In this document: piece after piece, positions 858 through 31,584 of the stretch
Position numbering within the stretch: the stretch's first letter is position 1
Layout of the letters: the number at the start of each line of letters is the position of its first letter
Assembly: GCF_032191465.1 (NCBI RefSeq)
Contig: NZ_JAQOUE010000002.1
Coordinates: 546,409-578,408, forward strand
From: Candidatus Nitronereus thalassa
Lineage (GTDB): Bacteria > Nitrospirota > Nitrospiria > Nitrospirales > UBA8639
Direction: 5' to 3'
DNA length: 32,000 bases
The notes under the pieces: model-generated
Told to the model about the DNA's origin: nothing
Databases searched by the model: none
Seen by the model: the letters and a program-made list of their open reading frames with translations, nothing else
Translations under genes and position numbers: made by a program

Positions 858-1090
858 ACCGCCATTTCACATGATAGGGCCGTGATTGGGAACGCCACAC
901 CACTTAACCATAAAATAGCAAACAAAAAAAAGAAAGGGAGCGGTGGATTTGGCAATTAGAAGTATCCTGTGGCCCCTGAATTCCCCTTCCCGTCGTTCCC
1001 GACGTTTTTAATTGGGAGCCATATTGGCTTTTCACTGAAGGTAAGCAATTGGATGAAAGGATTTGTTTCGATTTTTTTATAGCAGTCCGT

Positions 1091-2562
1091 ATGTCTTTTG
1101 TCTGGCATGGCTGCCTTCCGCATATTACAAGTGTGGAGAGGGCACCTTATCAATTCTTCAGACAGGAGACAGAACCATGAAACAACGAGCCTTTGTGGGA
1201 TTAGATGTGCTCAAGGACAGTATTGCGGTGGCCGTGGCTGTCGATGAACGAGGCGGAGACGTGCGGTTTTTGGGGGACATCGTGCATAAACCAGAAGCCA
1301 TCGCCAAGATGGCCAACAAGCTGGCAGCCACGCATGGGACCTTGGACTTCTGTTATGAAGCCGGGCCCTGTGGATACGGCCTCTACCGGCAACTCCTGGC
1401 CCAAGGCTATGCGTGTATGGTGGTCGCTCCCTCCCGCATTCCGATCGCCTCGGGGGATCGCGTGAAAACGGATCGCCGGGATGCGCAACGCTTGGCCGTG
1501 TTGCATCGCGCGGGGGAATTGACGGCGGTGTGGGTACCCGACGCCACCCATGAGGCGATGCGCGATCTCGTGCGGGCCCGGCTGGATGCGATGCGGCATG
1601 TGATGCGCGCCCGGCAACAGTTACTCGCGTTTCTGCTCCGACATGGGCGTGTATACGAGGCAGGTCGAAAGCCGTGGACGTGTCGGCATCGACGGTGGTT
1701 AGCGGCACAGAGCTTTCAGGAGCCGGCCCAGAATATAGTGTTTCAGGATTATGTGGAAGCTGTTTGGAGCGGAACGGCCCGTCGAGATGCCTTGCTTGCT
1801 CGTATAGCTGACCTGGTGCCGGCCTGGTCCTTAGGGCCTCAAGTTGAGGCGTTACGGAGCTTTCGTGGGTTGGAGTTAGTTTCCGCCGCCACTATTTTGG
1901 CCTGCCTTGGGGATCTCAGCCGCTTTGCCACGCCGCGGCACTTGATGAGTTATGTAGGGCTGACACCATCCGAACATTCCAGTGGCGGTCGAATCTGTCG
2001 CGGGAGAATTACCAAGACAGGGAATCGCGACGCCCGACGCATGTTGATTGAAGCCGCGTGGAGCTACCGCTATCCCGCGCGTGTGACTCAGGATAAATCG
2101 GATATTCTCATCAAACAACCAACGTGGGTGCGGGAGTTGGCCTGACGAGCGCAGGAGCGGCTGTGTCGCCGGTATCGGCAACTGACGAGAAAGGGGAAGA
2201 AATCAACCGTTGTCGTTACGGCCATTGCTCGCGAGCTATCTGGATTTATCTGGGCCTTGGGACGTGGCCTGACGCCGGCCTCTTGCTGAGGCCAGGAGTT
2301 CGGCGGGAGCGCGTGCGAACGGTTCGGGGAATGCTCGACAACCCTGTGGGCCAGCGCTGCTGATGCCCGTTAGCAGTCGGAGCCAGCTCCGCGACGACAC
2401 ACGTTCATGCGGTGGCAACCCGCGAAGGGAAGTTTGATCGACCGTCGCCAAAGTCGCACGGGCTCCCGACCTAACTCCTTGATCGTCATTGAACCGTAGC
2501 CAATACACTGTTTCGAGGAAACGGATGGCCGGCGTATGCGCGAATCTCTTGACAAAAGACAT
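1091..2562 (+). mobile_element. IS110/IS1111-family insertion sequence (~1.47 kb; boundaries uncertain by about 10 bp)
   Basis: A perfect 12-bp inverted repeat, ATGTCTTTTGTC (1091-1102) and GACAAAAGACAT (2551-2562), brackets a DEDD-type transposase gene. The interior is visibly GC-richer than the flanks. The left non-coding end is short (~86 bp) and the right one is long (~270 bp). Confidence 0.75.
1177..2289 (+). pseudogene. IS110-family (DEDD) transposase interrupted by one in-frame TGA at 2143-2145
   Basis: ATG at 1177 lies behind GGAGAC. Family motifs: VGLDV, YEAGPCGY, VKTDRRDA, GLTPSEHSSGG, ITKTGN. After the TGA the same frame continues as RAQERLCRRYRQLTRKGKKSTVVVTAIARELSGFIWAL and ends at TGA 2287-2289. 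That stretch is the conserved family C-terminus. The stop sits where family members usually carry Trp (W-x-AQ-x-RL). Confidence 0.8.
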
Positions 2563-3245: not shown

Positions 3246-3401
3246 ATACAACCTCCCTCTAACAATGTTTAGGCCGATCCGTATAAGAACAGGATTTTCG
3301 ACTTTTTGTCCACATAACACGCCATCGATTCTTCGGAAGAATACGCCGGGGTCGTTGTCTTTTCAATTGGGTATACCCATGGCTTCATTTATCACGGCGT
3401 A

Positions 3402-3619
3402 TCCTGCGTTGGGTGTGGCGGAGCCGCAGGCCCGAATCGACTATTAGGCTCGGGCTGTTTGAGTGGAGAGGTGGCTTTTCACCTCGGAACGAGTTCCCGA
3501 GCCATCTTATTCGGGACGGAGGCGGAGGGACCCGTAGGGCCATGCACAGGCAAGAATGGTTTTGGGCACTTTTGCCGAAACAAAAGTGCCTCGTCGTGCG
3601 GGCGCGAAAGCCCGCATAA
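3402..3619 (+). repeat. Structured repeat, copy B
   Basis: Direct repeat of 3785-4004. Internal helices: CCCGAAT 3431-3437 with ATTCGGG 3509-3515; GAGGTG 3468-3473 with CACCTC 3480-3485; GGCACTTTTG/CAAAAGTGCC at 3565-3590; GCGGGC/GCCCGC at 3598-3615. Confidence 0.9.
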
Positions 3620-3682
3620 TAATTCCCAAACAACGAACCACCATGACCTGAACTCGCAACACAATCCAAATCCACGAAAAAC

Positions 3683-3714
3683 CTGGATTCCCGCTTACAA
3701 CCGCGGGAATGACG
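3683..3714. repeat. REP-like palindromic element
   Basis: Perfect 8-bp arms ATTCCCGC (3687-3694) and GCGGGAAT (3703-3710) flank an 8-nt loop. This is the palindrome type that produces spurious RGND / IPA..GM peptide translations in many genomes. Confidence 0.7.
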
Positions 3715-3784
3715 AGGTTAAAACTGGCGTAACACACCTTCCTGTGGACCTTCGTTTATTTAGAAGTTGAAGTTTCAATCCGTC

Positions 3785-4004
3785 TCCTGCGTTGGGCGCG
3801 GCTGGGCCGCCGTTCCGAATCCCACATCTCGGCGAGGACTGTGTGAGCGGAGAGGTGGTTTTGCACCTCGGAGCGAGTTTCCTCGCCATCCTGATTCGGG
3901 AAGATGGCCCAGCTCCCTGTCGTTCCGCGCACAGGCAAACATGGTTTTGGGCACTTTTGCCGAAACAAAAGTGCCTCGTCGCGTGGGCGCGAAAGCCCGC
4001 ATAA
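3785..4004 (+). repeat. Structured repeat, copy C
   Basis: Same architecture as copy B. The last 63 bp (3942-4004) differ from 3557-3619 at only 2 positions. The copy ends 6 bp before the MOSC gene stop. Confidence 0.9.
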
Positions 4005-4010
4005 AATAAA

Positions 4011-4484
4011 TCACTCCTCTACCCAAGACACTGAATCCCCAACCAAAATTTCTCCATCATCCAACACCTCCCCAAATGCCCCACCGGCCCAAGAGGCCCC
4101 CATGGCCGCTTGTAATCCTGGAAGAGTTTCTTCCATTCGTTCACAAGGTTTGGTTTCGCCTAAAATTCGAATTCTGCATCGCCCAATTAAGAGAATTCGT
4201 TTTCGTGATTTCAGGAGGCTCAAGCCACGAAGCAACAAGTTGGCCCGACGCGCGGACGGGGGCAAGTCACCTCCAACTTCGTTCATCAATCCATCCCACA
4301 CTTCACGCTCAATAAGGGTCACTTGACGCCGCCCCCCTTGGTTGGCATTTCCAATCAGCCCAACGTCCTTTTCCAACGTCGCCATTTCCACCGAATCCAT
4401 GGGGCCACGCTTCATACGCTTGATCCAAATCGCCTCAAGTGTCCCGGAAATCTTGGAATCTTGTTGAGCGACTACCCTGCCCAT
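4011..4484 (-). CDS. MOSC domain-containing protein (YiiM-like)
   Basis: 157-aa ORF with a MOSC-like pattern: [32 protein letters not shown] (conserved Cys), [13 protein letters not shown]. Confidence 0.8.
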
Positions 4485-4580: not shown

Positions 4581-5165
4581 ATGAACACTATGCGCGATCG
4601 AATAGCTTGTCCTACCAGACGGCCAGAAAACAACACTTCAAACTCCATCATCACCCGTCTTTTTTTTACCCTATGCGTGATTGGAAATTTCGCGCTCACC
4701 GAAACTCCGGTGCGGGCCGAACATCCCACACTCACTCCCACGCCATTTGAACAAATTAAGGGGCTGGTTGGTACTTGGCAAGGCACGAGAAAAGCCTATG
4801 ACGGGGAAGAAACGATCACAGCACGTTATTCTCTCACAGCCAAAGACACCGCGGTGATGGAGCAATTATTCCCAGGCACTCCCAAGGAAATGGTATCCGT
4901 GTACACCCAAGACGGCCACGACCTTGTCATGACGCATTATTGCATGCTCGGCAATCAACCACGAATGAAGACTCAAGGACGGGCCCCATCCAAACACATC
5001 ACCCTAACCTACGTCGACGGGACTGGCATGCGCTCTCCCCATGAAATGCATATGCATGAAGTCACCATCACGATCATGGATGACTCCCACATGACCCACC
5101 AATGGACGTTATACGATAAAGGGAAAAAAAAGGTCACACACACGTTCATGTTTACTCGGCAATAA
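4581..5165 (+). CDS. Exported hypothetical protein with a His/Met-rich C-terminal part
   Basis: 194-aa ORF. A hydrophobic signal-like segment (ITRLFFTLCVIGNFALTETPVRA) precedes the mature part. Notable strings: THYCMLGNQPRM and SPHEMHMHEVTITIMDDSHMTHQW. The start is uncertain (ATG 4581 or 4590). Confidence 0.65.
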   Translation: MNTMRDRIACPTRRPENNTSNSIITRLFFTLCVIGNFALTETPVRAEHPTLTPTPFEQIKGLVGTWQGTRKAYDGEETITARYSLTAKDTAVMEQLFPGTPKEMVSVYTQDGHDLVMTHYCMLGNQPRMKTQGRAPSKHITLTYVDGTGMRSPHEMHMHEVTITIMDDSHMTHQWTLYDKGKKKVTHTFMFTRQ

Positions 5166-9551: not shown

Positions 9552-10154
9552 TCACTTCACTATCGACGAGGCATTTCCCCATTTGCCAGTGAAAACAAAT
9601 CCCTCCAGTGGCTTTCTTGTGCGTGGCGCTCTTTCCCGTTCAGCTAATTCTTCTGAAAGTAAGTTGGGATCTCCCATATACCCCAAGGCCAACCCCGTCA
9701 CGGGATCGAACCCTTGCGGGACACCATATACTTCTCGAATACGATCTGGAAGAATCCCGGCCATTTGATGCAGGCTGAGGCCCAAGACCGTGGCCTGAAT
9801 CACTAAGTTGCCGACGGCCAACCCGACATCATGCCACGCATGGGGATTCCCCTTGCCATTATGATCAAAGGTGGACTTGGCCACTGTCAGCATTAACACC
9901 GGAGCCAATTTGGCCCATTCTTGATTACCATCAACCAAGCACGACAGCATTCGTTGATACTCCTGGGGAGTGTCTTTGGTAGCCACGATAAAGTACCAGG
10001 GCTGCTCATTAAAGCAGGAAGAGGCCCACCGCGCAGCTTCGAAAAGACGGTATAAATCGTCTTTTTCAACTGGACGATCGATGAAGGAGCGAGGACTCCA
10101 CCGTCGCTGAATGGGATCGTGAAGCGAGTAATTTGTATCAGCGGGTTTTTCCAT
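9552..10154 (-). CDS. Nitroreductase family protein
   Basis: 200 aa. Typical nitroreductase pattern: RRWSPRSF, LFEAARWASSCFNEQPW, QATVLGLSLHQM. Confidence 0.85.
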   Translation of the reverse strand: MEKPADTNYSLHDPIQRRWSPRSFIDRPVEKDDLYRLFEAARWASSCFNEQPWYFIVATKDTPQEYQRMLSCLVDGNQEWAKLAPVLMLTVAKSTFDHNGKGNPHAWHDVGLAVGNLVIQATVLGLSLHQMAGILPDRIREVYGVPQGFDPVTGLALGYMGDPNLLSEELAERERAPRTRKPLEGFVFTGKWGNASSIVK

Positions 10155-12437: not shown

Positions 12438-12835
12438 AAGAAAAAGATGTTATGGAAATGAAAACCAAAATGATCCAAGAATTGTGGGCTGAAAAGAAGG
12501 GATGCCCCACTGATCAATTTTTCGGTTAAACACCCTCGACCTTGAGCTTTGGGATTTGGCCGTTGTTGTTTATTGCTACCCGTTAATGTTGGGTAAAACA
12601 GTTTTCTAAAGGTTTATACTAGCAAATTATACCTACAAAAAATCTAGAATTCCCCTTTCGATTTAAGTATTTGTGTACTTAATTTCAAGCAGGTTTTTTC
12701 TTCACGACCTCATAAAACTTTTTATGGAAATCTTTCTTTTTTTCAGAAAATTGGCATTGCGGCCTAGCTCCTCATCTCGTATTCTGAAAGAATGAAGTCA
12801 TCGCAGCTATCAAACTCTTAGCATCAGGTTTTCTT

Positions 12836-17592: not shown

Positions 17593-18969
17593 ATGACGCA
17601 TGACGTCTTAATCATCGGTGGAGGATCGGCGGGTTACGCCGCCGCTCGAACCGCTCGCGACGAAGGTGCGAATGTCGGTATTATCGACCATGGCCCGTTA
17701 GGCGGTCTGTGTATTCTCCGTGGATGCATGCCCACCAAGACCATCCTCCGGTCATCCGACATTATAGCGCTCATCAAGCGAGCCAACGAATTCGGCCTTT
17801 CTTCCGTTTCCCCAAAAGCCAATCTCTCCGCCATCATCGATCGTAAAGCCCGGCTCATCGGTGAATTTGCCGATGACCGCATTCAGGCATTGAAGGATTC
17901 ACGTTTTACCCTGTACGAAGAGCGGGCAAGGTTTGTCTCACCCCATGAGGTTCAGGTGGGAACCCAGACCCTGACCGCGAAAGCCTTTATCATTTCAACT
18001 GGTTCGGTTGTCTCGCGCATTCCCCTACCAGGCCTTGAAGAAGTTGGCTACATCACGAGTGATGAGGCATTGGAATTACGTGATTTACCAGAATCCATGA
18101 TCGTGCTGGGCGGGGGGGCGGTCGCCGTGGAACTGGCCCAATTCTTTTCACGCATTGGCACCAAGGTCACGCTCATTCAACGCAGCCGGCACATTATGTC
18201 CGAGGGCGATGAAGACTTGGCACGACCGGTCGAGGCTCGATTCCGCGAGGAAGGCATGACCGTCTATACCAATACCCAACTTCATCGGTTTACCAAGAAT
18301 GGCACACAGAAAGTCGCGCACTTTACCCATGACGGACAAGAAAAAACCGTCATGGCAGAGATTATCCTCCAAGCGCTTGGCCGACGACCGAATATCGATG
18401 GATTACATCTTGAAGCGGCCGGGATCAAAACAGAAAAGGGTAGGGTCGTGGTGGATAGGACCATGCGTACCAATCACCCCCACATCTTTGCCGTCGGCGA
18501 TGTGAATGGCCTACACGAGATTGTACACATTGCGATTGAACAAGGAGAAATCGCTGGATGGAATGCGATGCATGCCAATGATTCTCCACGCCGCTATGAC
18601 GATCGACTCAAAACACAGGTCGTTTTTACCGACCCACAAGTCGCCAGCGTGGGATTGAGCGAAAGAGAATGTAGGAGAGAGAATATTTCCTACATGACGG
18701 CATCCTATCCGTTTAACGATCACGGGAAATCCATGACGCTGGGTGAGACCCATGGGCATGTGAAGCTCCTGGCCGATCCTCTCACTGGAACCCTCCTTGG
18801 AGCACACATTGTTGGGCCAGAAGCGGCGGAGTTAATTCATGAACTCATTGCCGTGATGTATTTCTACGGCACGGTTCATGATCTGATGCGTATTCCCCAT
18901 TATCATCCCACCTTGGCCGAAATCATCACCTATCCCGCAGAGGAACTATTGGGACGCATCCCTAAATAA
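17593..18969 (+). CDS. Class-I pyridine nucleotide-disulfide oxidoreductase (Lpd/MerA-like, substrate unknown), paralog 1
   Basis: GGGSAGY FAD motif, redox-active CILRGC (CX4C), GGGAVAVE NAD(P)H motif, and the C-terminal HYHPTLAE dimerisation/His-Glu motif. Confidence 0.9.
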   Translation: MTHDVLIIGGGSAGYAAARTARDEGANVGIIDHGPLGGLCILRGCMPTKTILRSSDIIALIKRANEFGLSSVSPKANLSAIIDRKARLIGEFADDRIQALKDSRFTLYEERARFVSPHEVQVGTQTLTAKAFIISTGSVVSRIPLPGLEEVGYITSDEALELRDLPESMIVLGGGAVAVELAQFFSRIGTKVTLIQRSRHIMSEGDEDLARPVEARFREEGMTVYTNTQLHRFTKNGTQKVAHFTHDGQEKTVMAEIILQALGRRPNIDGLHLEAAGIKTEKGRVVVDRTMRTNHPHIFAVGDVNGLHEIVHIAIEQGEIAGWNAMHANDSPRRYDDRLKTQVVFTDPQVASVGLSERECRRENISYMTASYPFNDHGKSMTLGETHGHVKLLADPLTGTLLGAHIVGPEAAELIHELIAVMYFYGTVHDLMRIPHYHPTLAEIITYPAEELLGRIPK

Positions 18970-18980
18970 CAGCATCCCAT

Positions 18981-19748
18981 TTATTTCTCTTTGAAATCAT
19001 CAGCTCCACACCATGGACAGATGCCTTCTGTTTGGGCCCGCGATGGTGGAGTTGAAGTGACCTCTACCCCAACAGGAGCCTCGCCTTGAATGAGTCGCAC
19101 CCACCAAGCGGATCGATTCCGAAGAATCAACTTCGGCAAGAAAAGAAAAAGTCCGGCCAACAGCACACCAGAAACAATCACCGGCCATTGTAACGTAGGC
19201 ACACTTCCTCCCAAATAGGTCAACGCAAACGTCGGGGGAATCATTCCAAAAAGCGTAGCGATGGCAAAGGCTTTCAAGGACATCTTGGTCAGACCCGCAC
19301 CGTAGCTGATAATGTCGAAAGAAAATATGGGCAGGAGACGGGCTAAGAAGACGAGACCCAGGAGATGATGATCAGAGCACTTTTCACAAAAAGTGACGTT
19401 GGTTTTGAATAAACGGCCCAACACTTCGCGGCCCAATCCTCGTCCAATGAGAAAACTGAGAATGGCGCCGATCTCCGCTCCCGTCACGGCATACACCATA
19501 CCCCAAAAAGGTCCAAACGTGATTCCTGCTGCAATGTCCAATGGCAGGCTAGGTATTGGGCTCACGACCACTGCCAATACCATGAGCCCGATGAATACCA
19601 CAGGAGCCCAGCTCCCCAGGGATGCCAATTGACTCACGATGAAATCTGGTTCGGTCAGGACATCGACATCCAAAAACTCAACGATCCCATAGGCACCAAA
19701 AACTAAGAGGAGCAAAATTATCAGTTTCACCACATGAGCAGTTTTCAT
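18981..19748 (-). CDS. TVP38/TMEM64 (DedA superfamily) membrane protein with two CxxC motifs, paralog 1
   Basis: I chose the start MKTAHVVKLI at 19748. SNARE-associated-type core: GAEIGAILSFLIGRGLG, RLLPIFSFDIISYGAGLT. Extra motifs FCEKCSDHH and a C-terminal CPWC. Confidence 0.85.
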   Translation of the reverse strand: MKTAHVVKLIILLLLVFGAYGIVEFLDVDVLTEPDFIVSQLASLGSWAPVVFIGLMVLAVVVSPIPSLPLDIAAGITFGPFWGMVYAVTGAEIGAILSFLIGRGLGREVLGRLFKTNVTFCEKCSDHHLLGLVFLARLLPIFSFDIISYGAGLTKMSLKAFAIATLFGMIPPTFALTYLGGSVPTLQWPVIVSGVLLAGLFLFLPKLILRNRSAWWVRLIQGEAPVGVEVTSTPPSRAQTEGICPWCGADDFKEK

Positions 19749-20005
19749 TAAGTCATTCCTTAATCCAAAAGCATTCAACTCCCATACATAATCATAGACC
19801 ACTGTGACCCAGCTTTTGTGATGAGCCTTGCGTCCTCGAAGCGGAAAGCCTACGCTTTTTTACTTTGTTTTGTCATAATCATGAACGTTCACGGCAAGGC
19901 GAAAACCTGTAACAACTCCCCCGATGACAAGACTGTAGGAACAATGGCCGACATTCCCCACTCGTCACCGTCATTTCTTACCAATAATTGTTACGAGGTT
20001 TACCC

Positions 20006-20749
20006 ATGTCGCCATCAACTACGGAGACAATCATGACGACCTCCTCGCTACCCAATACCGCTCCCAATCCCTTTGGGAAAATCGTCCTCCTGAGCGTTCT
20101 TGGGCTGGGCATTGGAGCTTTTTTCTATTTTGACCTGGGACAATTTTTCTCTCTTGAGGCCTTAAAGAGCAATCGGGACAGACTTCTGGCCTATACCGAA
20201 GCCAATTTTGGCATGGCCATGGCCTTATTCATTCTGATTTATATTGTTCAAACAGGCTTTTCGTTGCCAGGTGGCGCGATCATGACTTTGGCCGGGGGGT
20301 TCCTCTTTGGAAGTTTTCTAGGAACAGTGTTGGTGAATGTCGGGGCCACCACAGGAGCTACGCTGGGATTTTTATCCGCCCGTTACTTGTTACGCGATTG
20401 GGTAGAAAAGAAATTTGGCGACCGCCTAGAATCTATTCAAGCAGGATTTGCCAAAAATGCTTTTAGTTACCTCATGACCTTGCGGCTCATTCCTGCGTTT
20501 CCCTTTTTTCTTGTCAACTTGGTATCCGGGTTAACCCGGATCAACATCGGAACTTATATCACCGCAACATCCCTGGGAATCATTCCAGGTAGTTTCGTCT
20601 TTGCGTTTGCCGGCAGGCAGCTGGGTACCATAAATTCATTGGGAGAGATTGCGTCTCCTCCCGTCCTTCTGGCGTTTACACTGCTTGGCGTCTTAGCTTT
20701 GATGCCCATCATTTATCGGAAATTCAATCAAACTAAAAATCCCCAATGA
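20006..20749 (+). CDS. TVP38/TMEM64 (DedA superfamily) membrane protein, paralog 2
   Basis: I chose ATG 20006, which follows ACGAGG. Core: GGFLFG, GATTGATLGFLSARYL, RLIPAFPFFLVNLVSGLT. Confidence 0.88.
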   Translation: MSPSTTETIMTTSSLPNTAPNPFGKIVLLSVLGLGIGAFFYFDLGQFFSLEALKSNRDRLLAYTEANFGMAMALFILIYIVQTGFSLPGGAIMTLAGGFLFGSFLGTVLVNVGATTGATLGFLSARYLLRDWVEKKFGDRLESIQAGFAKNAFSYLMTLRLIPAFPFFLVNLVSGLTRINIGTYITATSLGIIPGSFVFAFAGRQLGTINSLGEIASPPVLLAFTLLGVLALMPIIYRKFNQTKNPQ

Positions 20750-20832
20750 AGACAACCATTTCCAGAATAGTAACGACACACCAACAAGCCATGGTGTAAA
20801 GCGCAGTAAGGTCCTTTCAGGAAGGATGACTC

Positions 20833-22386
20833 ATGCAAACAGGTACCCAAAGAAACGACTTAGTCGAAATACCCCCCATGGATGAGTTCAACCATGCCTT
20901 AATCAACAATGTGCATCCGCCAACCTGGTTCAATCCTGAGCCCACTGGACGATACAACTTGGTCGTCATTGGGGCGGGTACTGCGGGACTCGTGACTGCA
21001 GCGGTAGCAGCGGCAGTGGGAGCAAAAGTGGCGTTGATTGAACGCCACTTGATGGGTGGCGATTGTCTCAACGTCGGATGCGTGCCTTCAAAAGGTGTGA
21101 TTCGAGCCTCCCGTGTGTGGGCGGAAATACACCATGCCGCAGAGTTCGGTCTGCATATTCCACAGGGAGTCAAGCGGGATTTCGGCACAGCCATGGCTCG
21201 AATGCGTAAATTGCGTGCCAAGATCAGTCATGTCGATTCTGCTCATCGCTACAAGGGGCTGGGCGTCGATGTGTTTATCGGGGAAGGTCGGTTTGCCGGA
21301 CCGGGAACCGTGGAAGTCGCCGGTAAAACCCTCGAATATGCCAAGGCAGTAATTTGCACGGGAGCTCGCGCAGCCGCGCCACCAATACCCGGCCTTGAAG
21401 AGGCCGGGTATCTCACCAATGAAACGATCTTTTCGCTCACGGAACTTCCCCCAAGACTTGCCGTTATTGGCGCCGGCCCCATCGGCTGCGAGATGGCCCA
21501 ATCCTTCACTCGTTTTGGGAGCCAAGTGTGCTTATTCGAACGAACCAATCATATCCTTCCGCGTGAAGATGCCGATGCCGCCGAGATCGTGCAAAAACAA
21601 ATGTCCAAGGAGGGGCAATGTTTCGTATTTAATTCAAACATCACAAATATAGAAACGCGCGGACAAGAGAAGATCGTACACTTCGAACAAGATGGAGAAA
21701 ACAAGGAACGTGTGTTTGATGAAATTCTTGTCGGCATCGGACGAGCGCCGAATGTCGAGAACCTCGGCCTGGACACCGTGGGTGTCGAGTTCGACAAACA
21801 ATCCGGCGTCAAAGTAAATTCCAAGCTCCAAACATCCAATCCAAAAATCTACGCAGCAGGCGACATCTGTTTTCCCTTTAAGTTTACCCACGCAGCGGAT
21901 GCTATGGCGCAAATTGTGATCCAAAATGCCTTATTCCCCCACCCCTTTGGATTGGGCTATGCGAGCACGGACTCCCTCATCATCCCCTGGGCCACTTATA
22001 CCGACCCCGAGATTGCCCATGTGGGACTCTATGAGCAGGAGGCAAAAGAAAAGGGCCTGGAGGTGGACACTTTCACATTTAAACTGGATGAAGTCGATCG
22101 TGCGATCTTAGATGGGGAAGATGAAGGATTTGCACGAGTCCATATCAAGAAAGGAACAGATACGATTCTCGGCGCCACCATTGTCGCAGCCCATGCGGGC
22201 GATATGATAAGCGAGATTACTTTGGCCATGAAGGGTGGATTAGGCCTAAGCACAATTACCGGCACGATCCACCCGTATCCCACGCAGGCTGAGGTGATAA
22301 AAAAAGTGGCGAATGCTTGGCGAAAAACCACGTTCACCGAAGGCAAGAAAAAATTCCTGACGAAACTCTTTGCCCGCATGCGATAA
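20833..22386 (+). CDS. Class-I pyridine nucleotide-disulfide oxidoreductase (mercuric-reductase-like core, not a canonical MerA), paralog 2
   Basis: GAGTAG FAD motif, GGDCLNVGCVPSK redox disulfide, GAGPIGCE, C-terminal IHPYPTQAE. It has a ~40-aa N-terminal extension (NNVHPPTWFNPEP). It has no GMTCxxC metal-binding domain and no C-terminal Cys-Cys pair. Confidence 0.9.
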   Translation: MQTGTQRNDLVEIPPMDEFNHALINNVHPPTWFNPEPTGRYNLVVIGAGTAGLVTAAVAAAVGAKVALIERHLMGGDCLNVGCVPSKGVIRASRVWAEIHHAAEFGLHIPQGVKRDFGTAMARMRKLRAKISHVDSAHRYKGLGVDVFIGEGRFAGPGTVEVAGKTLEYAKAVICTGARAAAPPIPGLEEAGYLTNETIFSLTELPPRLAVIGAGPIGCEMAQSFTRFGSQVCLFERTNHILPREDADAAEIVQKQMSKEGQCFVFNSNITNIETRGQEKIVHFEQDGENKERVFDEILVGIGRAPNVENLGLDTVGVEFDKQSGVKVNSKLQTSNPKIYAAGDICFPFKFTHAADAMAQIVIQNALFPHPFGLGYASTDSLIIPWATYTDPEIAHVGLYEQEAKEKGLEVDTFTFKLDEVDRAILDGEDEGFARVHIKKGTDTILGATIVAAHAGDMISEITLAMKGGLGLSTITGTIHPYPTQAEVIKKVANAWRKTTFTEGKKKFLTKLFARMR

Positions 22387-22419
22387 CCCCCAATGCCCTA
22401 TGGCAAAAAGGCCTAAACC

Positions 22420-23193
22420 ATGTCTGACCTCCATCGCTATAGCCCTCAACCTCTCAGCATTTTTGGCTTTTTCCTCTGTCTCATTAGTACCTTGTGGCTG
22501 CCTAGTGCCATAGCTGAAGAAAAATTAGAAATAGGATTATTTTCATCTGCCGAGCCGGAAGGATCTTTTCCTCAAGGATGGGAACCCCTCACCTTTGAAA
22601 AAATTCCTCAACACACCGCCTACGAGTTAGTCAAAGATGGTGGCACCGTCGTGGTCAAAGCCACCAGCAAGCAGTCATCATCTGGGCTCACTCGAAAGAT
22701 GAAGATTGATCCTAAACAATTTCCCATCGTTCAATGGCGGTGGAAAATAGAAAACATTATTCAAGGTAGTGATGTCACTAAAAAAGAAGGCGACGATTAC
22801 CCTGCCAGAATTTACATTACCTTTGAATACGATAGCAGCAAGGTGGGATTTTTCGAAAAGGCCAAATTCGAACTGATTCGCCTTGCCTATGGCCAATATC
22901 CCCCAACCGGGGCCATCAATTATATCTGGGAAAGTAAGGCTCCGATTGGTGCTGTAGTGCCCAACCCTTATACGGATTACGTTCAAATGATCGTGACGCA
23001 AAGCGGAAGCCAACGCGTCGGCGAATGGGTCATGGAGGAACACAATGTGTACGAAGACTACAAGAAAGCTTTTGGGGAGGAACCGACACATATTTCCGGT
23101 GTGGCCATCATGACAGACACCGACAACACCAAAGAATCCGCCATCGCATATTTTGGAGATATTCTTTTCAAACAATCGGCCACATCAGAATAA
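22420..23193 (+). CDS. Secreted DUF3047-like protein
   Basis: Signal peptide ends at PSAIA-EE. The pattern (GWEPLTF, TAYELVKDGG..VVKATS, QWRWKIEN, DDYPARIYITFEY) matches DUF3047 from memory. It starts 33 nt after the preceding reductase. Confidence 0.75.
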   Translation: MSDLHRYSPQPLSIFGFFLCLISTLWLPSAIAEEKLEIGLFSSAEPEGSFPQGWEPLTFEKIPQHTAYELVKDGGTVVVKATSKQSSSGLTRKMKIDPKQFPIVQWRWKIENIIQGSDVTKKEGDDYPARIYITFEYDSSKVGFFEKAKFELIRLAYGQYPPTGAINYIWESKAPIGAVVPNPYTDYVQMIVTQSGSQRVGEWVMEEHNVYEDYKKAFGEEPTHISGVAIMTDTDNTKESAIAYFGDILFKQSATSE

Positions 23194-23377
23194 ACCGTCG
23201 CCTGCTGGAATTTGTAAGGTTCTTCACAGAAATATTTTTATGAAGGGCGTAACATATAATCCTTTTTATTGACATACCAGGAACACTAGGAGCCCAACCC
23301 CAAAGCTGTGGGGTATTATCACCCTAACCACATCGCTCATTTTGAGGGACCTATCATTCCACAAGGAGGAGTTCATC

Positions 23378-23659
23378 ATGATATCCACAAAATCTATTCT
23401 TGTGAGCACTGCGCTCTCCAGTCTGTTGCTTGCCTCAACCGCCCATGCAGGGCCTGGCCACGAAGGGGGGCATGGCGATTCTGCCGCAGGCCAATGTCAT
23501 GGCGTGAACGCATGCAAGGGACATGGTGCCTGTAAAGGGGCCGGTCATTCCTGTGAAGGGAAAAACTCTTGCGAAGGGAAAGGCTGGCTAAAGATGTCCA
23601 AGGAAATGTGTGAAAAATTGAAAGACGGGAAGTGGACTCCCATGCCCCAAAAGAGCTAA
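23378..23659 (+). CDS. Exported 6-Cys/His-rich mini-protein, bufferin-precursor-like (DUF2282/BufA-type resemblance), copy 1
   Basis: AAGGAGGA precedes ATG 23378. The Sec signal peptide ends AHA-GPG. The mature part has C-x5-C-x5-C-x6-C-x5-C-x12-C with CHGVNACKG and NSCEGKGW. Confidence 0.8.
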   Translation: MISTKSILVSTALSSLLLASTAHAGPGHEGGHGDSAAGQCHGVNACKGHGACKGAGHSCEGKNSCEGKGWLKMSKEMCEKLKDGKWTPMPQKS

Positions 23660-23713
23660 TTCTGGAGCAGGGTTAGCATCGAAAAATATTTGTTGATCAG
23701 GAGGTGACCGACT

Positions 23714-24016
23714 ATGAATTCAAAACATCGTTTACTGACCAGCGCTGCACTCACGGGTCTCTTACTTGCCGCTGGATGTGCCCATCATGATAGCCATGGA
23801 GTCTATGGCAAAGGGGGCTCCCATGCCGCCCTGGGACAATGCCACGGCGTCAATGCCTGTAAAGGCAAGGGAGACTGTGCGTCCGCCACACACGATTGCT
23901 CCGGTGAAAACTCTTGTGAAGGTAAGGGCTGGATCAAAATGTCAAAAGCTATGTGTGGCGATATTAAAGGCAGCACCTGGAAGGCGATGCCAGAGAATAT
24001 GAAACACAAAGGCTAA
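23714..24016 (+). CDS. Lipoprotein 6-Cys/His-rich mini-protein, paralog of 23378-23659, copy 2
   Basis: CAGGAGG precedes ATG 23714. Lipobox LAAGC. The six-Cys spacing and core (GQCHGVNACKG.G.C.....H.C.G.NSCEGKGW.KMSK.MC) are identical to copy 1. Confidence 0.8.
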   Translation: MNSKHRLLTSAALTGLLLAAGCAHHDSHGVYGKGGSHAALGQCHGVNACKGKGDCASATHDCSGENSCEGKGWIKMSKAMCGDIKGSTWKAMPENMKHKG

Positions 24017-24035
24017 CCCTTTCCAAAATGGCAAC

Positions 24036-24075
24036 AAAAAGGCTGTGCATCATCCCGAGACGCACAGCCTTTTTT
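24036..24075. terminator. Bidirectional Rho-independent terminator between convergent genes
   Basis: Arms GGCTGTGC (24041-24048) and GCACAGCC (24062-24069), flanked by AAAAA (24036-24040) and TTTTTT (24070-24075). Confidence 0.75.
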
Positions 24076-24097
24076 GTTTATCCAACAAGAGGTTTTG

Positions 24098-24676
24098 CTA
24101 AAAATAATTCGGAGATCCCCCTGCCTTCCATTTAATATTACATCCGGCACTAGGCTTTTGATCCTGAGAGACGAGTTGTTTGGCCAACACCGCATCCATC
24201 GCAGCTCGCAAGTCTTTTCCCGTGACCGGCTTGCCATTGCCAGGACGGCTGTCATCTAACTGTCCACGATAGACCAACTGTTGATTGTCATCAAAAAGAA
24301 AAAAATCTGGCGTACAAGCTGCGGTAAATAACTTGGCAACCTCCTGTCCTTCATCATAGCAGTAGGGGAAGGAAAACCCGTTCTCCTGCGCCATCGCTTT
24401 TAATTGCTCTGGACGATCATCAGGATAATTTTCTATATCATTGCTACTGATGGCAATCATTGTAATCCCTTTTTCCCCATATTCCTTTCCCAACCGAGCA
24501 ATCTCTTCTTGCACATGGATGACATAGGGACAATGCCGACAGATAAACATCACTAGGGTGCCAGGATATCCAGCAAGTTGAGTTGAGGATATTTGTTTTC
24601 CCGTCACCACATCCGGCAACTCAAAATGGGGGAGGGAAGTTCCTAGTGGCAACATTGTGGATTTGGTCAAAGCCAT
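24098..24676 (-). CDS. Thioredoxin-fold (AhpC/TSA-like) protein
   Basis: 192 aa. Redoxin pattern: LPHFELPD, GTLVMFICRHCPYV (CxxC), with a conserved C-terminal GCNIKW. Confidence 0.85.
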   Translation of the reverse strand: MALTKSTMLPLGTSLPHFELPDVVTGKQISSTQLAGYPGTLVMFICRHCPYVIHVQEEIARLGKEYGEKGITMIAISSNDIENYPDDRPEQLKAMAQENGFSFPYCYDEGQEVAKLFTAACTPDFFLFDDNQQLVYRGQLDDSRPGNGKPVTGKDLRAAMDAVLAKQLVSQDQKPSAGCNIKWKAGGSPNYF

Positions 24677-24786
24677 CGCGAATGATTCCTTCTAATTACA
24701 AAAAGATTGGAAACAGGGAAGAGCGAGAGTGAAGGCAGCCCCAGCTATCACTTCCAAGGAAATCGGGCTGCCAATCGCTACAATGG

Positions 24787-25065
24787 TTACTCCTTTTTCC
24801 ATGTCCGAAATCGTTTAAGCAATTCTTCTCGAATATCGTCAGGTATGGGTTCCGCAGGAAGCTGCCCAAGCGTGCGAATCGTTGTCTTCATTTGAGACAA
24901 ATACGCGCGGCAACCTCGGCAAAAACCCAAATGGATTTGGAAACGAAGTCGTTCTGAAAAGGACAAACTTCCCTCCAGGAAATCCGTCATTAAATTCACC
25001 AAATCCTGGCAGGAAAAATTTCCCGCCATATAATGCATGATTTGACCTTTCAGTTCGTTCGACAT
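24787..25065 (-). CDS. Soluble ZAS-type (zf-HC2) anti-sigma factor
   Basis: The ATG at 25065 shares one base with the TGA of the sigma gene (TGATG). It has the H-x3-C-x2-C motif (HLGFCRGC) plus a Cys 26 residues upstream. I see no TM segment. Confidence 0.8.
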   Translation of the reverse strand: MSNELKGQIMHYMAGNFSCQDLVNLMTDFLEGSLSFSERLRFQIHLGFCRGCRAYLSQMKTTIRTLGQLPAEPIPDDIREELLKRFRTWKKE

Positions 25066-25754
25066 CAATGGGTTGCTTTCTTTTCAATTAGTTGCTGTTC
25101 GATGAATTTCCGCACTTTGGCCCTGGCTCGATGGAGCAAAACCCGTTGATTGGTCTCCGTAATCTCCAAAATATTACAGACATCTTTTGCATCCAGTTCT
25201 TCGATATCCCGCAAAGTCATTACATGGCGCTGAACCGGCGGCAGGGCATTAATGGCTTGTTGGATAAGCACACGGCTTTCTTTTGAAAGTAAGAGCCTTT
25301 CAGGGGTTTCCTCATCCCACATACTGGGCAGAGTTGACCAATGACCGGCTAAGGCACCGGATTGAATAAATCGGTCTGGTTCTCTCCATCCTTCATCATC
25401 ACCCTCTCCCTGTCCATCGCCTGAATCCAGAGACTCATACCGCCGCTCCCGCTGGCCGCGAGTTTTGGCCCTATTCGTCAAAATCCGAAACATCCACGTT
25501 TTCAACGATGACCGGCCTTCAAACCGTGGGAGACTCTCTAAGACGCCCTGCCAAGTTTCTTGCACCACTTCCTCAGCCACAGCTCGAGAAGGCACATAGG
25601 CCATGGCTAAGCGTAACAACGCCCCATAGTATGTCTCAATCAAAAACCCAAAGGCTGATTCATTCCCTTGTCGTAATGCTTCCACGAGCACCTGCTCCTC
25701 CTTCCATTTTCCGGAAGGGGAGCCCGACGATTGTTGAGTATCCTCTTCCTGCAT
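25065..25754 (-). CDS. ECF-type RNA polymerase sigma-70 family factor
   Basis: Region 2 (EEVVQETWQGVLESLPRF, SLKTWMFRILTNRA) and region 4 (LPPVQRHVMTLRDIEELDAKDVCNILEITETNQRVLLHRAR) are joined by a long acidic linker. Confidence 0.9.
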   Translation of the reverse strand: MQEEDTQQSSGSPSGKWKEEQVLVEALRQGNESAFGFLIETYYGALLRLAMAYVPSRAVAEEVVQETWQGVLESLPRFEGRSSLKTWMFRILTNRAKTRGQRERRYESLDSGDGQGEGDDEGWREPDRFIQSGALAGHWSTLPSMWDEETPERLLLSKESRVLIQQAINALPPVQRHVMTLRDIEELDAKDVCNILEITETNQRVLLHRARAKVRKFIEQQLIEKKATH

Positions 25755-27569: not shown

Positions 27570-27879
27570 ACCGGCCTCCTTTCCCAATTTCTAGTTTTAA
27601 AAAATTTTGTTCATCACAATTTAGTGAAAACCCGGTGAAAATCTGGATATGTTTAGTTACCAGCCTAGTCTCATGCTACATCTCATTTTCGGAATATGTC
27701 AATAGAATACTTTAGGTATTTATTCTTAATCATGATTCTCTTTCTCAACTTCGCTGAGATGGACTCTCAAGTTCGCTGATATGAATTTTCAACTTCAGCT
27801 TACACCAGGATCGAGAGAGGGACAGAAAGTCACGAGGCATCGGTTGACCGATATTCTTGGCCAGTGCTACCGTCCCCCT

Positions 27880-30800
27880 ATGTCCTCACCCACCACCAAT
27901 CGTCCACCCAATCGTCTCATCCACGAAACCAGCCCCTATTTACTTCAGCATGCGCACAACCCTATTGATTGGTATCCTTGGGGCAAGGACGCACTCTCAC
28001 GAGCCCAGACTGAAGACAAACCTATTCTCTTATCCATAGGATATTCGGCCTGCCATTGGTGCCATGTGATGGAACGTGAATCGTTTGAGAATGAGGAAAT
28101 CGCTAAACTCATGAATCAGGACTATGTCTGTATCAAAGTGGACCGAGAGGAACGCCCCGACCTCGATGAAATTTACATGCAAGCTACGTTGGCCATGAAC
28201 CAAGGCAACGGGGGATGGCCCATGACGGTATTCCTCACCCCCGACCAACAACCCATCTTTGCCGGCACGTATTTTCCACCGACTGATAAATGGGGACGCC
28301 CGGGTTTTAGTACTGTGCTAAAAAAAATCGCGGAAGGTTGGCATAAAGACCGAGCCGAAATTGTGGACACTGCTTCACGGTTTACCGCGAAACTCCAGAA
28401 ATCCATTCAAGTTCCCTCTCCCACTACCATTGGGCAGGATGAACTGGATGCCGGAACTGAACAATTTGCGAAACATTTCGATCCCGTGTTTGGCGGATTT
28501 GGGCAAGCCCCAAAATTCCCTCCTGCCACCGGACTCTCGTTTTTACTTCGCCAATATCATCACACGGGCAACGAACATACCCTAACCATGGTTCGAAAAA
28601 CCTTGGACGCCATGGCCGCTGGCGGAATGTATGACCACATTGCCGGTGGGTTTTCTCGCTATTCCACAGATGAACGTTGGCTAGTCCCGCATTTCGAAAA
28701 AATGTTGTACGACAATGCCCTTCTCGCCAAAACTTACGTCGAAGCCTTTCAAGTCACTCAAGCGGACAACTACCGGCGAGTCGCCACTGAAATTCTCGAT
28801 TACATAATTCGAGAAATGACGTCTCCGGAGGGAGGATTTTATTCAGCCACTGATGCGGACTCGGAAGGCGTGGAAGGAAAATTTTTTGTTTGGGACCCCG
28901 AACAAATTAAAGCGATTGTTCCATCTGAAGAAGACGCGAAACGCTTTTGCGCCTACTATGACATTACCGATGAAGGCAATTGGGAACATCATAGTATCCC
29001 CAATACCCCTCGTGCTCTTGATGCTGTCGCTCAAGAAATAGACTGCTCGCCAGAGGAACTGCAACAAACAATAGACCGTGTGCGTCCCCTCGTCTATCAG
29101 GCCCGATTAACTCGAGTTCCCCCAGGGCTCGACGATAAAATCATCACCGCGTGGAATGGAATGATGATCAGCACCATGGCCGAAGCCAGTCGAGTATTTG
29201 GTCACCCTCAATATTTGCAAGCTGCCACCAACGCCGCGGATTTTCTTCTTCGAACGCTTTCAAGGCCAGATGGTGGTCTGTTTCGCACCTATCGGGAGAA
29301 CAAAGCCCATCTCGATGCATATCTTGAAGATTATGCGTTTCTCATCGAAGCCTTGATAGATATCTATGAAGCAGGCGGAAGCGAACACTATTTATCCGAG
29401 GCCGTTCGATTGGCTGAACGGCTGCTCCAAGATTTTTCCGATCAAGAATACGGTGGATTTTTCACCACGGCAAAAGATCATGAAACCCTCATCCTCCGAA
29501 GCCGTGAAGGCCCCGATGGCGCCACTCCTAGCGGAAATGCCGTGGCCGCCACGGCGCTGGCCAGACTCTCGTTTCATTTCGGACGAGAAGATTTACGTGA
29601 CGCCGCAACACAAGCCATTCGTGCCTATGGCCAACAAATCGCCCAAATCCCGCGCGGCTTTGCGAAAACCTTGATTGCCTCTGATTTACTACTCAAAGGC
29701 CCAATTGAATTAGCGTTAGTCGGAAGCCCTGAGGGCCACCAGGCATTGGAAGCCCTTTCAAAAGAACTGAGGCGTCATTTCGTGCCGAATCGAATTATCG
29801 CTCATTATGATCCTCAAAACTCCAAAACCTCGCATCCTCTTCTGAAAGACAAAACCTTAGTTAATGGACAGCCAGCGCTTTATATCTGCAAAAATTTCGC
29901 CTGTGCCGCTCCCCTTACCGACCCGAAACTGATCAAACAGGCTTTGGCCCATCAGCTTCATCCTGATCCGGATCAACCAACAACCCAAACCACCACACTC
30001 AAAACTTCCGGCATCACCGGAAAAGCGACGGCACAGGGAACGGCAGCCTATGTTTCACGCATGTTGTCCCACTCCAAGTCCAACCGCCCATCAGCTTCCG
30101 GGTATGGTCCTTTGGGATCAACGGGGTTGACGACCTCTCGAATTGGATTTGGAGGATACCGTATTACGGAAGGTCACGATGAACACCGAGAAGCCTTACG
30201 TAAAGCCTTGCGTGAGGGATGCAATATCATTGATACCTCAACGAACTATACGGATGGTAGCAGTGAACGTTTGATTGGGCAGGTGATCAAGGAATTACTG
30301 CAGGCTCAAGAAATGACTCGCGAAGAAGTGATCGTGGTTTCGAAGATTGGCTATGTACAAGGCCAGAACCTGGCTCGCGCGGAAACCAAAGAGCAAACCG
30401 GACATCCATATCCTGATATGGTGAAATATGGCGAAGGGTTGTGGCATTGCCTCCACCCTGAATTTCTTGAGGATCAGTTTGCGCTATCACTGGATCGTTT
30501 GGGGTTGGAAACACTGGACGTGTGCTTACTGCACAACCCTGAATATTTTCTTTCCGACGTTAAAAACCAGAAGCTCATCGTGGATAACGAAAAGCTCCAA
30601 GAACTGCGAAACGAATTTTACCGTCGACTACAACAAGCCTTCGAGTATTTTGAGACGCAAGTCACCGCAGGACGCCTACAATACTATGGCGTCTCATCCA
30701 ACACCTCGACGACCTCTCCCGATGATCCCGAAGCCACCTCACTCTCTCGCATCTATGAATGTGCCAAAGCCGCGGGCAACACTCTTGGAAAATCTTTCCC

Positions 30801-31584
30801 TGCATTCCGAGTCTTGCAACTCCCCATGAACTTGTTTGAATCAGGGGCATTACTCACTCCCAACACTGGCAGCGACACCTCCAAGACAGTTTTGGAATTT
30901 GCACAACAAGAACAGATCGCCATACTTGTCAATCGACCACTCAATGCCATCCCCTCAAAACATCGCGGCATGATTCGATTGGCCAATCCCCACACGGAAC
31001 CCGTGGAATCAACTTTTGAGGAGCTATACGAACAACTTGGAACCTTGGAAGAGGAATTTCGGGAAAAATTCGTCCCGCATATTCCTTACTCCGGCAAGGG
31101 CCTCGAGCCAAAAGACTTTTTCTCATTCACCGAGGAACTGAAAAATCTACGACCCCGCCTCCAGGGACTTGAACACTGGGATCAGATTGAATCACAGATG
31201 ATCGCCCCACATGTCAATCAAGCGCTTCAAGTCGTCTCCAAACACCTTGGCGAGGACCACGCGAATGCCTGGAGCAATTGGCAACACCGCTACATTCCAA
31301 AACTTTTGACCTTTTTTCTGGTGTTGCGAAAAGAATCTGCACAAAAAAACCGTGAGGCGATTTCTGCAATATCAGGACTCATCGATCCCCATCTACCGAA
31401 GGATAAACGCTCCGAATCCATTTCCTCCAAATCTCTCTGGATATTAACCAGCACCTCAGGAGTTACCTGTGTCCTCAACGGCATGAGAACATCTGCCTAT
31501 GTTGAAGAAGCACTCAAGGTCTTACACTGGGCGCCCCTTTCCAACCCCCGAGATGTGTTTGAAAAAATCAGAAATCCTCAATAG
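27880..31584 (+). CDS. Fusion protein: DUF255/YyaL thioredoxin-fold plus (alpha/alpha)6-barrel protein fused to an aldo/keto reductase domain
   Basis: A single uninterrupted frame. N-terminal: [43 protein letters not shown], and an ending of [14 protein letters not shown]-terminal: AKR pattern with all four catalytic residues ([23 protein letters not shown]). The start is uncertain (27880 or 27781). Confidence 0.85.

Follow-up and report, generated by a model that had tools for sequence, protein, structure and literature searches.

Two tandem Buf2-type bufferin precursor genes of Candidatus Nitronereus thalassa, probably matured in trans by a distal BufBC pair

Results

The window, that is, the whole stretch of 32,000 nucleotides analysed here, contains two adjacent genes for proteins of 93 and 100 aa, each behind a strong ribosome-binding site (RBS), as an earlier note on this DNA had described. 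Gene A (bufA2a, 23378–23659, + strand) encodes a 93-aa precursor of the Buf2 bufferin family; its RBS, read from the sequence as AAGGAGG (23363–23369, +), lies 8 nt before the ATG and is kept in an alignment of the upstream regions of syntenic relatives. Gene B (bufA2b, 23714–24016, +) encodes a 100-aa Buf2-family precursor with a lipoprotein (SPase-II) signal, and the RBS found in its sequence (AGGAGG, 23699–23704, +) precedes the ATG by 9 nt. The interval first given for gene A had begun at 23342, where the ORF-finder listing has a TTG; this start was ruled out and replaced by the ATG at 23378, which follows the RBS and gives a 93-aa product that exactly matches WP_313834823.1 (Candidatus Nitronereus thalassa). 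The product of gene B matches WP_313834824.1 and bears the UniRef name 'Lipoprotein', and both precursors are labelled as 'hypothetical proteins' in current databases.

Export signals of the two kinds claimed earlier were present. Gene A has a predicted Sec/SPase-I signal peptide (residues 1–24, ...TAHA-GPGH), with the hydrophobic core preceding AHA-G, and gene B has a predicted lipobox, LAAG-C22, that is kept in its orthologues. The claims of His-rich N-termini and of a common cysteine spacing also held: the mature product of gene A starts with the tail GPGHEGGHGD and continues into a six-Cys core, and in gene B the tail AHHDSHGVYGKGGSH directly follows LAAG-C and leads into the same core, with the spacing C-x5-C-x5-C-x6-C-x5-C-x12-C in both proteins (C40, C46, C52, C59, C65, and C78 in gene A). 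The two proteins are 53% identical. An alignment of 23 homologues showed that all six cysteines are invariant, and that the His-rich tails are confined to the Nitrospirales clade of gene A and gene B.

The profile search that the note had asked for upheld its reading of the pair as bufferin-type proteins of the 6-Cys BufA2 kind. On NF050166, the NCBIfam equivalog for the BufA2 family periplasmic bufferin-type metallophore, gene A scored 63.5 bits and gene B 62.3 bits, which exceeds the curated cut-off of 60 by only 2–3 bits, with E-values of 1.5e-17 and 3.8e-17 and coverage of profile positions 7–75 and 5–77 of 79. Membership of DUF2282, which the note had also raised, was not borne out, as neither protein matched Pfam PF10048 at E ≤ 10; precomputed PF10048 matches were found on two distant homologues, P0019 and P0026. 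Because there is no DUF2282 match, both proteins are assigned to the six-Cys Buf2 type and not Buf1. The sole Pfam match, of gene A to DUF7640, was sub-threshold (16.9 bits vs. 28.1). A sequence search of the PDB gave no match at E ≤ 10, and the AlphaFold2 model calculated from the 23-sequence alignment was of low confidence (mean pLDDT 56.5), with strands at 37–44 and 69–74 and a helix at 75–79; this outline, unreliable at such confidence, would be compatible with the fold expected for Buf2, a small domain in which a two-stranded sheet and a short helix are bridged by a disulfide. The two proteins of Ca. Nitronereus thalassa are ordinary new members of the described Buf2 family of modified, copper-binding peptides, and knowledge of the family is unchanged by them.

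The selection acting on the genes was evaluated using orthologues from three other genomes. Gene A showed pN of 0.08–0.14 and pS of 0.82–0.89, and gene B showed pN of 0.11–0.21 and pS of 0.60–0.83. That pN (0.08–0.21) lies far below pS (0.60–0.89) points to purifying selection on both genes. Orthologues that are 78–88% identical are present in other genomes, and since the profile E-values are around 1e-17 and pN is far below pS, the precursor genes are not chance ORFs.

Upstream on the same strand, Pfam and NCBIfam matches identified DedA/VTT (19988–20749, +), a MerA-like FAD oxidoreductase (20833–22386, +), and DUF3047 (22420–23193, +), in an order that is kept in L002–L005 and L087–L090. The wider block at 17593–23193 encodes a pair of paralogous MerA-like FAD oxidoreductases, two membrane proteins of the DedA/VTT type, and a DUF3047 protein that is secreted, and is kept beside the precursor pair in all syntenic relatives. 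Between DUF3047 and gene A, the intergenic region (23194–23362, +) contains blocks conserved in the alignment of syntenic relatives, namely TTCTTCACAGAAATATTTTT, GCGTAACA, TTGAC, and CTCAT-TTGAG. A promoter scan of the + strand at 23194–23377 revealed no convincing sigma-70 site and no terminator-like site; because no such terminator precedes gene A, co-transcription of the precursors with DUF3047 and the upstream same-strand genes is possible. Downstream of gene B, a hairpin at 24029–24083, whose core GGCTGTGC...GCACAGCC lies between an A-run and a T-run, has a calculated RNA folding energy of −25.1 kcal/mol (z = −5.1), and none of 200 shuffled sequences folds as well. This hairpin is likely a bidirectional terminator for gene B and the convergent thioredoxin-like gene.

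The convergent operon (24098–25754, −) encodes, by Pfam matches, a CxxC thioredoxin-fold protein (24098–24676, −), a soluble zf-HC2 anti-sigma factor with the motif H-x3-C-x2-C (24787–25068, −), and an ECF sigma factor (25065–25754, −), and is kept in syntenic relatives. In the 93 aa of this zf-HC2 anti-sigma factor no membrane segment is obvious; the protein is similar to soluble sensors of thiols or zinc of the RsrA/ChrR kind and differs from the NrsF type reported for Buf1 clusters. The ECF sigma gene is preceded by a sigma-70-like TTGATT-17-CATAAT. Control of gene A by the ECF factor was considered and found no support, as a comparison of the region upstream of gene A with that upstream of the ECF sigma gene gave only scattered shared 7-mers and no common motif. 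Separately, a 4.6-Mb relative (L087) carries a repeat of ~130 nt upstream of bufA2a and of the ECF sigma gene (~9640–9770 and 12570–12690). This repeat has the appearance of a small mobile or repeated element, and the window does not contain it.

The absence of a maturase from the window, as reported in the note, was confirmed. A Pfam scan of 30 ORFs detected no DUF692 (MNIO) or DUF2063 domain, and tblastn against all frames with the BufB and BufC of the genome itself gave a best E of 0.27. Neither bufB (MNIO) nor bufC (DUF2063) lies in the window, and so neither is adjacent to the precursor genes. Both domains were found beyond the window, where the note had proposed to look for them. A protein search with a related BufB retrieved P0060, 'DUF692 domain-containing protein [Candidatus Nitronereus thalassa]', which scored 345 bits against a cut-off of 310 on NF050167 (MNIO_BufB, 'MNIO family bufferin maturase'). 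Its scores on the HvfB model (222.8 vs. cut-off 360) and on MbnB (53.3 vs. 325) are below both cut-offs, so the MNIO is neither of the HvfB nor of the MbnB type. Directly after P0060 lies a PF09836 (DUF2063/HvfC_N) protein, which is recognised only through its precomputed Pfam match and scores 33.9 on NCBIfam HvfC, far under the cut-off of 142.

This bufB–bufC pair, annotated as 'DUF692' and 'DNA-binding domain', corresponds to MDT7044042/043 (WP_313834628.1 and WP_313834629.1), and the precursors correspond to MDT7044238/239. The pair appears to be on the same 656-kb contig as the precursors, since the longest contig recorded for P0060 and the one with the window's proteins both measure 656,439 bp, and is numbered before them, and from the accession gap of 196 proteins we infer a distance of roughly 0.2 Mb. 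No BufA2-like ORF and no other plausible Cys-rich ORF was found in up to 10 kb on either side of bufBC in Ca. N. thalassa. A precursor hidden beside the distal bufBC was accordingly rejected, with no BufA2-like or plausible Cys-rich ORF in this locus (L091) or in the related loci L010 and L008.

Among relatives, both linked and split arrangements were observed. In L001, a 2.38-Mb Nitrospirales contig, MNIO and DUF2063 genes come immediately after the gene A orthologue P0008 (78% identical), the MNIO being 70% identical to P0060. A divergent lipoprotein paralogue (P0014) lies ~430 bp from P0008, and this precursor pair stands in a context unrelated to that of the window. Of the 80 MNIO loci that are closest to the MNIO of L001 in a species-level genome collection, 70 contain a BufA2-like ORF, which nearly always abuts the start of the MNIO gene. 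Furthermore, in most of the Nitrospirales loci examined, the single MNIO-adjacent BufA2 is itself of the lipoprotein form (xxGC lipobox).

The tandem pair recurs in exactly the context of the window in at least eight loci from other MAGs or samples (L002–L005 and L087–L090), in the order DedA, DedA, FAD oxidoreductase, DUF3047, gene A, gene B, a convergent thioredoxin-fold gene, zf-HC2 anti-sigma, ECF sigma, LuxR, ferritin, and a DUF255-AKR fusion. In one of these MAGs, JAQBUF01, contig 4 (L002) carries the tandem precursors and contig 6 (L010) a bufBC pair without a BufA2-like ORF. The latter is syntenic with the bufBC locus of N. thalassa, and a third genome (L008) shares this bufBC synteny. 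Because relatives show the same split in synteny, the split is an inherited feature of the marine sublineage and not an assembly accident.

Two further loci deserve description. In the bufBC locus of Ca. N. thalassa (L091, 11646–13987), the start of a radical SAM/SPASM gene lies 19 nt beyond bufC, and next come a 225-aa protein without family match and a TIGR04283 'arsenosugar biosynthesis' glycosyltransferase; the syntenic L010 is without the radical SAM gene, and its bufC is directly followed by the counterpart of the 225-aa protein and the glycosyltransferase. In a metagenome organism, P0011 is a stand-alone lipoprotein-type BufA2 (L093, 8001–12433; L094, 6645–11077), with no MNIO within 8 kb downstream or 6.6–8 kb upstream and with a P1B-type ATPase nearby.

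Discussion

We consider it probable that the two genes encode the precursors of a Buf2-type bufferin system that is split between two loci, and that their products are modified in trans and exported, with one copy anchored to the membrane by lipid. The earlier note had left two alternatives, precursors matured in trans or unmodified Cys/His metal-binding proteins. Maturation in trans by the distal BufBC is now favoured on grounds of co-occurrence, because the genome also encodes a BufB-equivalog MNIO together with its DUF2063 partner, at a locus where no BufA2-like ORF is close by, and the second alternative is less favoured. The pair annotated as 'DUF692' and 'DNA-binding domain' ~0.2 Mb away is therefore likely the maturase of these precursors. 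A sizeable share of Buf1 and Buf2 precursors is unlinked to MNIO genes and may be modified from another locus (PMC12452194). Since surveys report such a stand-alone fraction, adjacency of precursor and maturase is typical rather than obligatory.

The steps of the proposed pathway are modelled on the Buf2 system of Caulobacter, for which the chemistry and the induction by copper have been described (PMC11626156). In the cytoplasm, BufB and BufC would modify the two precursors in trans by converting the four central cysteines (C46, C52, C59, and C65 in gene A) to 5-thiooxazoles, with a loss of 4 Da each. The modified products would be exported by Sec, and a disulfide between the first and the sixth cysteine (C40–C78 in gene A) would form after export. 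Signal peptidase I is expected to free the gene A product into the periplasm, and Lgt with signal peptidase II to anchor the gene B product in the membrane through Cys22. In the periplasm, both may then chelate surplus copper and possibly further soft metals, the copper specificity being extrapolated from Caulobacter. Moreover, the clade-specific His-rich N-terminal tails may add metal sites.

The two proteins could instead be unmodified periplasmic Cys/His-rich metal-binding or disulfide-rich mini-proteins that left the RiPP pathway on moving away from bufBC, with the distal bufBC serving another substrate. The window without a maturase would agree with this, His-rich tails could bind metal without modification, and the published survey leaves open that unlinked precursors 'are not modified' (PMC12452194). 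However, the conserved bufBC, which has no BufA2-like ORF close to it, would on this view be left without a recognisable substrate, and the six family cysteines and their flanking motifs are invariant under strong purifying selection. In the same survey, none of 864 complete genomes with Buf2 precursors is missing an MNIO gene (PMC12452194). We therefore regard the loss of modification as unlikely.

Modification may also serve a purpose other than copper buffering. The neighbours of the precursor pair (the MerA-like oxidoreductase, DedA, the thioredoxin, and the ZAS-type ECF pair) hint at redox stress or at metals other than copper, and the bufferins could counter a different thiophilic metal (Hg, Ag, or Cd) or redox stress (reactive oxygen or chlorine species) as part of the DedA/MerA-like/DUF3047 operon and the ECF-ZAS-thioredoxin unit. 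The conserved order with DedA, the MerA-like FAD oxidoreductase, and DUF3047, with no terminator seen before gene A, speaks for such a role, as do the MerC-Buf2 fusions reported in mercury clusters (PMC12452194). Nevertheless, copper induces the sole Buf2 system tested and Fe, Zn, and Mn do not (PMC11626156), no promoter motif is common to the ECF sigma gene and gene A, and L001 holds the same pair in an unrelated context. In addition, a distance of 1.7 kb separates the stand-alone relative P0011 from a YHS/HMBD P1B-type ATPase of a type typical of copper export, a proximity that fits a copper link. A main role outside copper buffering thus appears improbable. We would give little credence, too, to a scenario in which the precursors were recruited in the marine Nitronereus lineage into the DedA/MerA-like/DUF3047 operon beside a thiol-sensing (ZAS-type) ECF unit and gained His-rich tails, so that the soluble protein and its lipid-anchored partner would together serve as a periplasmic relay in metal or redox stress of a kind other than classical copper stress, with precursor supply regulated apart from the maturase.

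That the genes are decaying or non-functional remnants of a disrupted cluster, as their separation from the maturase genes and the IS110 transposase and repeats elsewhere in the window might suggest, is hardly credible and was rejected on the grounds of purifying selection (pN far below pS) and synteny, given that both frames are intact with strong RBSs and a terminator and that at least eight loci of other genomes or samples retain the tandem pair.

The proposed split system of N. thalassa is closest to the Buf2/BufA2 type (BUF_6/12Cys; NF050166/NF050167), whose founder is CCNA_03001 of Caulobacter vibrioides with BufB2/BufC2 (PMC11626156). It shares the export signal, the pattern of six cysteines, an HMM score above the cut-off, and a genome with a BufB-equivalog MNIO and DUF2063 partner, and its orthologues occur in the canonical bufA2-bufB-bufC order. 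It differs in that the precursors are two tandem paralogues, one of SPase-I and one of lipoprotein type, which lie ~196 genes from bufBC, carry His-rich N-terminal tails, and stand beside a zf-HC2-type ECF pair rather than under SigF/NrsF. With Buf1/BufA1 (DUF2282, PF10048) the proteins have in common Sec export, an MNIO and DUF2063 maturase, a C-x-G-V/I-N-type motif, and the copper-buffering role, which for N. thalassa is predicted; unlike them, Buf1 has four cysteines and often a DoxX gene and SigF/NrsF, and the window proteins are without a PF10048 match. Oxazolins (HvfA, EGKCG motif, HvfBC) and methanobactins (MbnABC) are likewise MNIO-made, Cys-derived copper-binding peptides, as is predicted for N. 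thalassa, but their precursor families and heterocycle chemistry differ.

The note had called a lipid-anchored copy unusual for a RiPP, a view that no longer stands. Lipoprotein signals are predicted in about 16% of Buf2 precursors (PMC12452194), experiments have demonstrated lipidated MNIO RiPPs and lipidated bufferins are predicted (PMC13056109), and the MNIO-adjacent BufA2 of most Nitrospirales loci examined is a lipoprotein; the lipobox of gene B is therefore expected. The lipidated MNIO-modified RiPPs (DybA/chryseobasin-like; PMC13056109) resemble gene B in the precursor lipobox and in the expected SPase-II lipid anchoring, and are unlike it in precursor family and in core chemistry (macrocycle/hydantoin vs. 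thiooxazoles).

Stand-alone, tandem, and lipoprotein Buf2 precursors have already been published, the survey covering MNIO-unlinked genes, tandem precursors, and the lipoprotein-signal Buf2 (PMC12452194), and what is added here is modest. It consists of a specific marine Nitrospirales lineage in which both split halves, the precursor pair and a bufBC without a BufA2-like ORF, are each conserved in synteny, together with His-rich tails and a pair of paralogues of which one is soluble and the other lipidated. The annotation is also corrected, in that two entries of this cultivated marine nitrite oxidiser, so far named 'hypothetical proteins', prove to be bufferin precursors of the Buf2 family. 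Furthermore, the natural split cluster offers a convenient test of whether BufBC works in trans on two substrates, one soluble and one lipidated.

Additional features of the window

An IS110-family transposase (DEDD_Tnp_IS110 and Transposase_20) is encoded at 1063–2145 (+). Just downstream of it, a repeat of ~220 nt is present in three copies that are 80–89% alike, one inverted (2583–2808) and two direct (3398–3619 and 3781–4004), and the hairpin GGCACTTTTGCCGAAACAAAAGTGCC occurs in every copy. The ORFs at 3459–3770 and 3904–4326, which run across these repeats, share 'GFGHFCRNKSASS' and are probably spurious.

At 4581–5165 (+), a 194-aa protein without a Pfam match combines a hydrophobic segment at the N-terminus with a C-terminal part rich in Met and His (...SPHEMHMHEVTITIMDDSHMTHQW...), and may be another periplasmic metal-binding protein. 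Finally, a 1267-aa fusion of a DUF255 thioredoxin-domain/epimerase-like protein and an aldo-keto reductase domain is encoded at 27781–31584 (+), and this DUF255-AKR fusion is kept at ~1232 aa in relatives.
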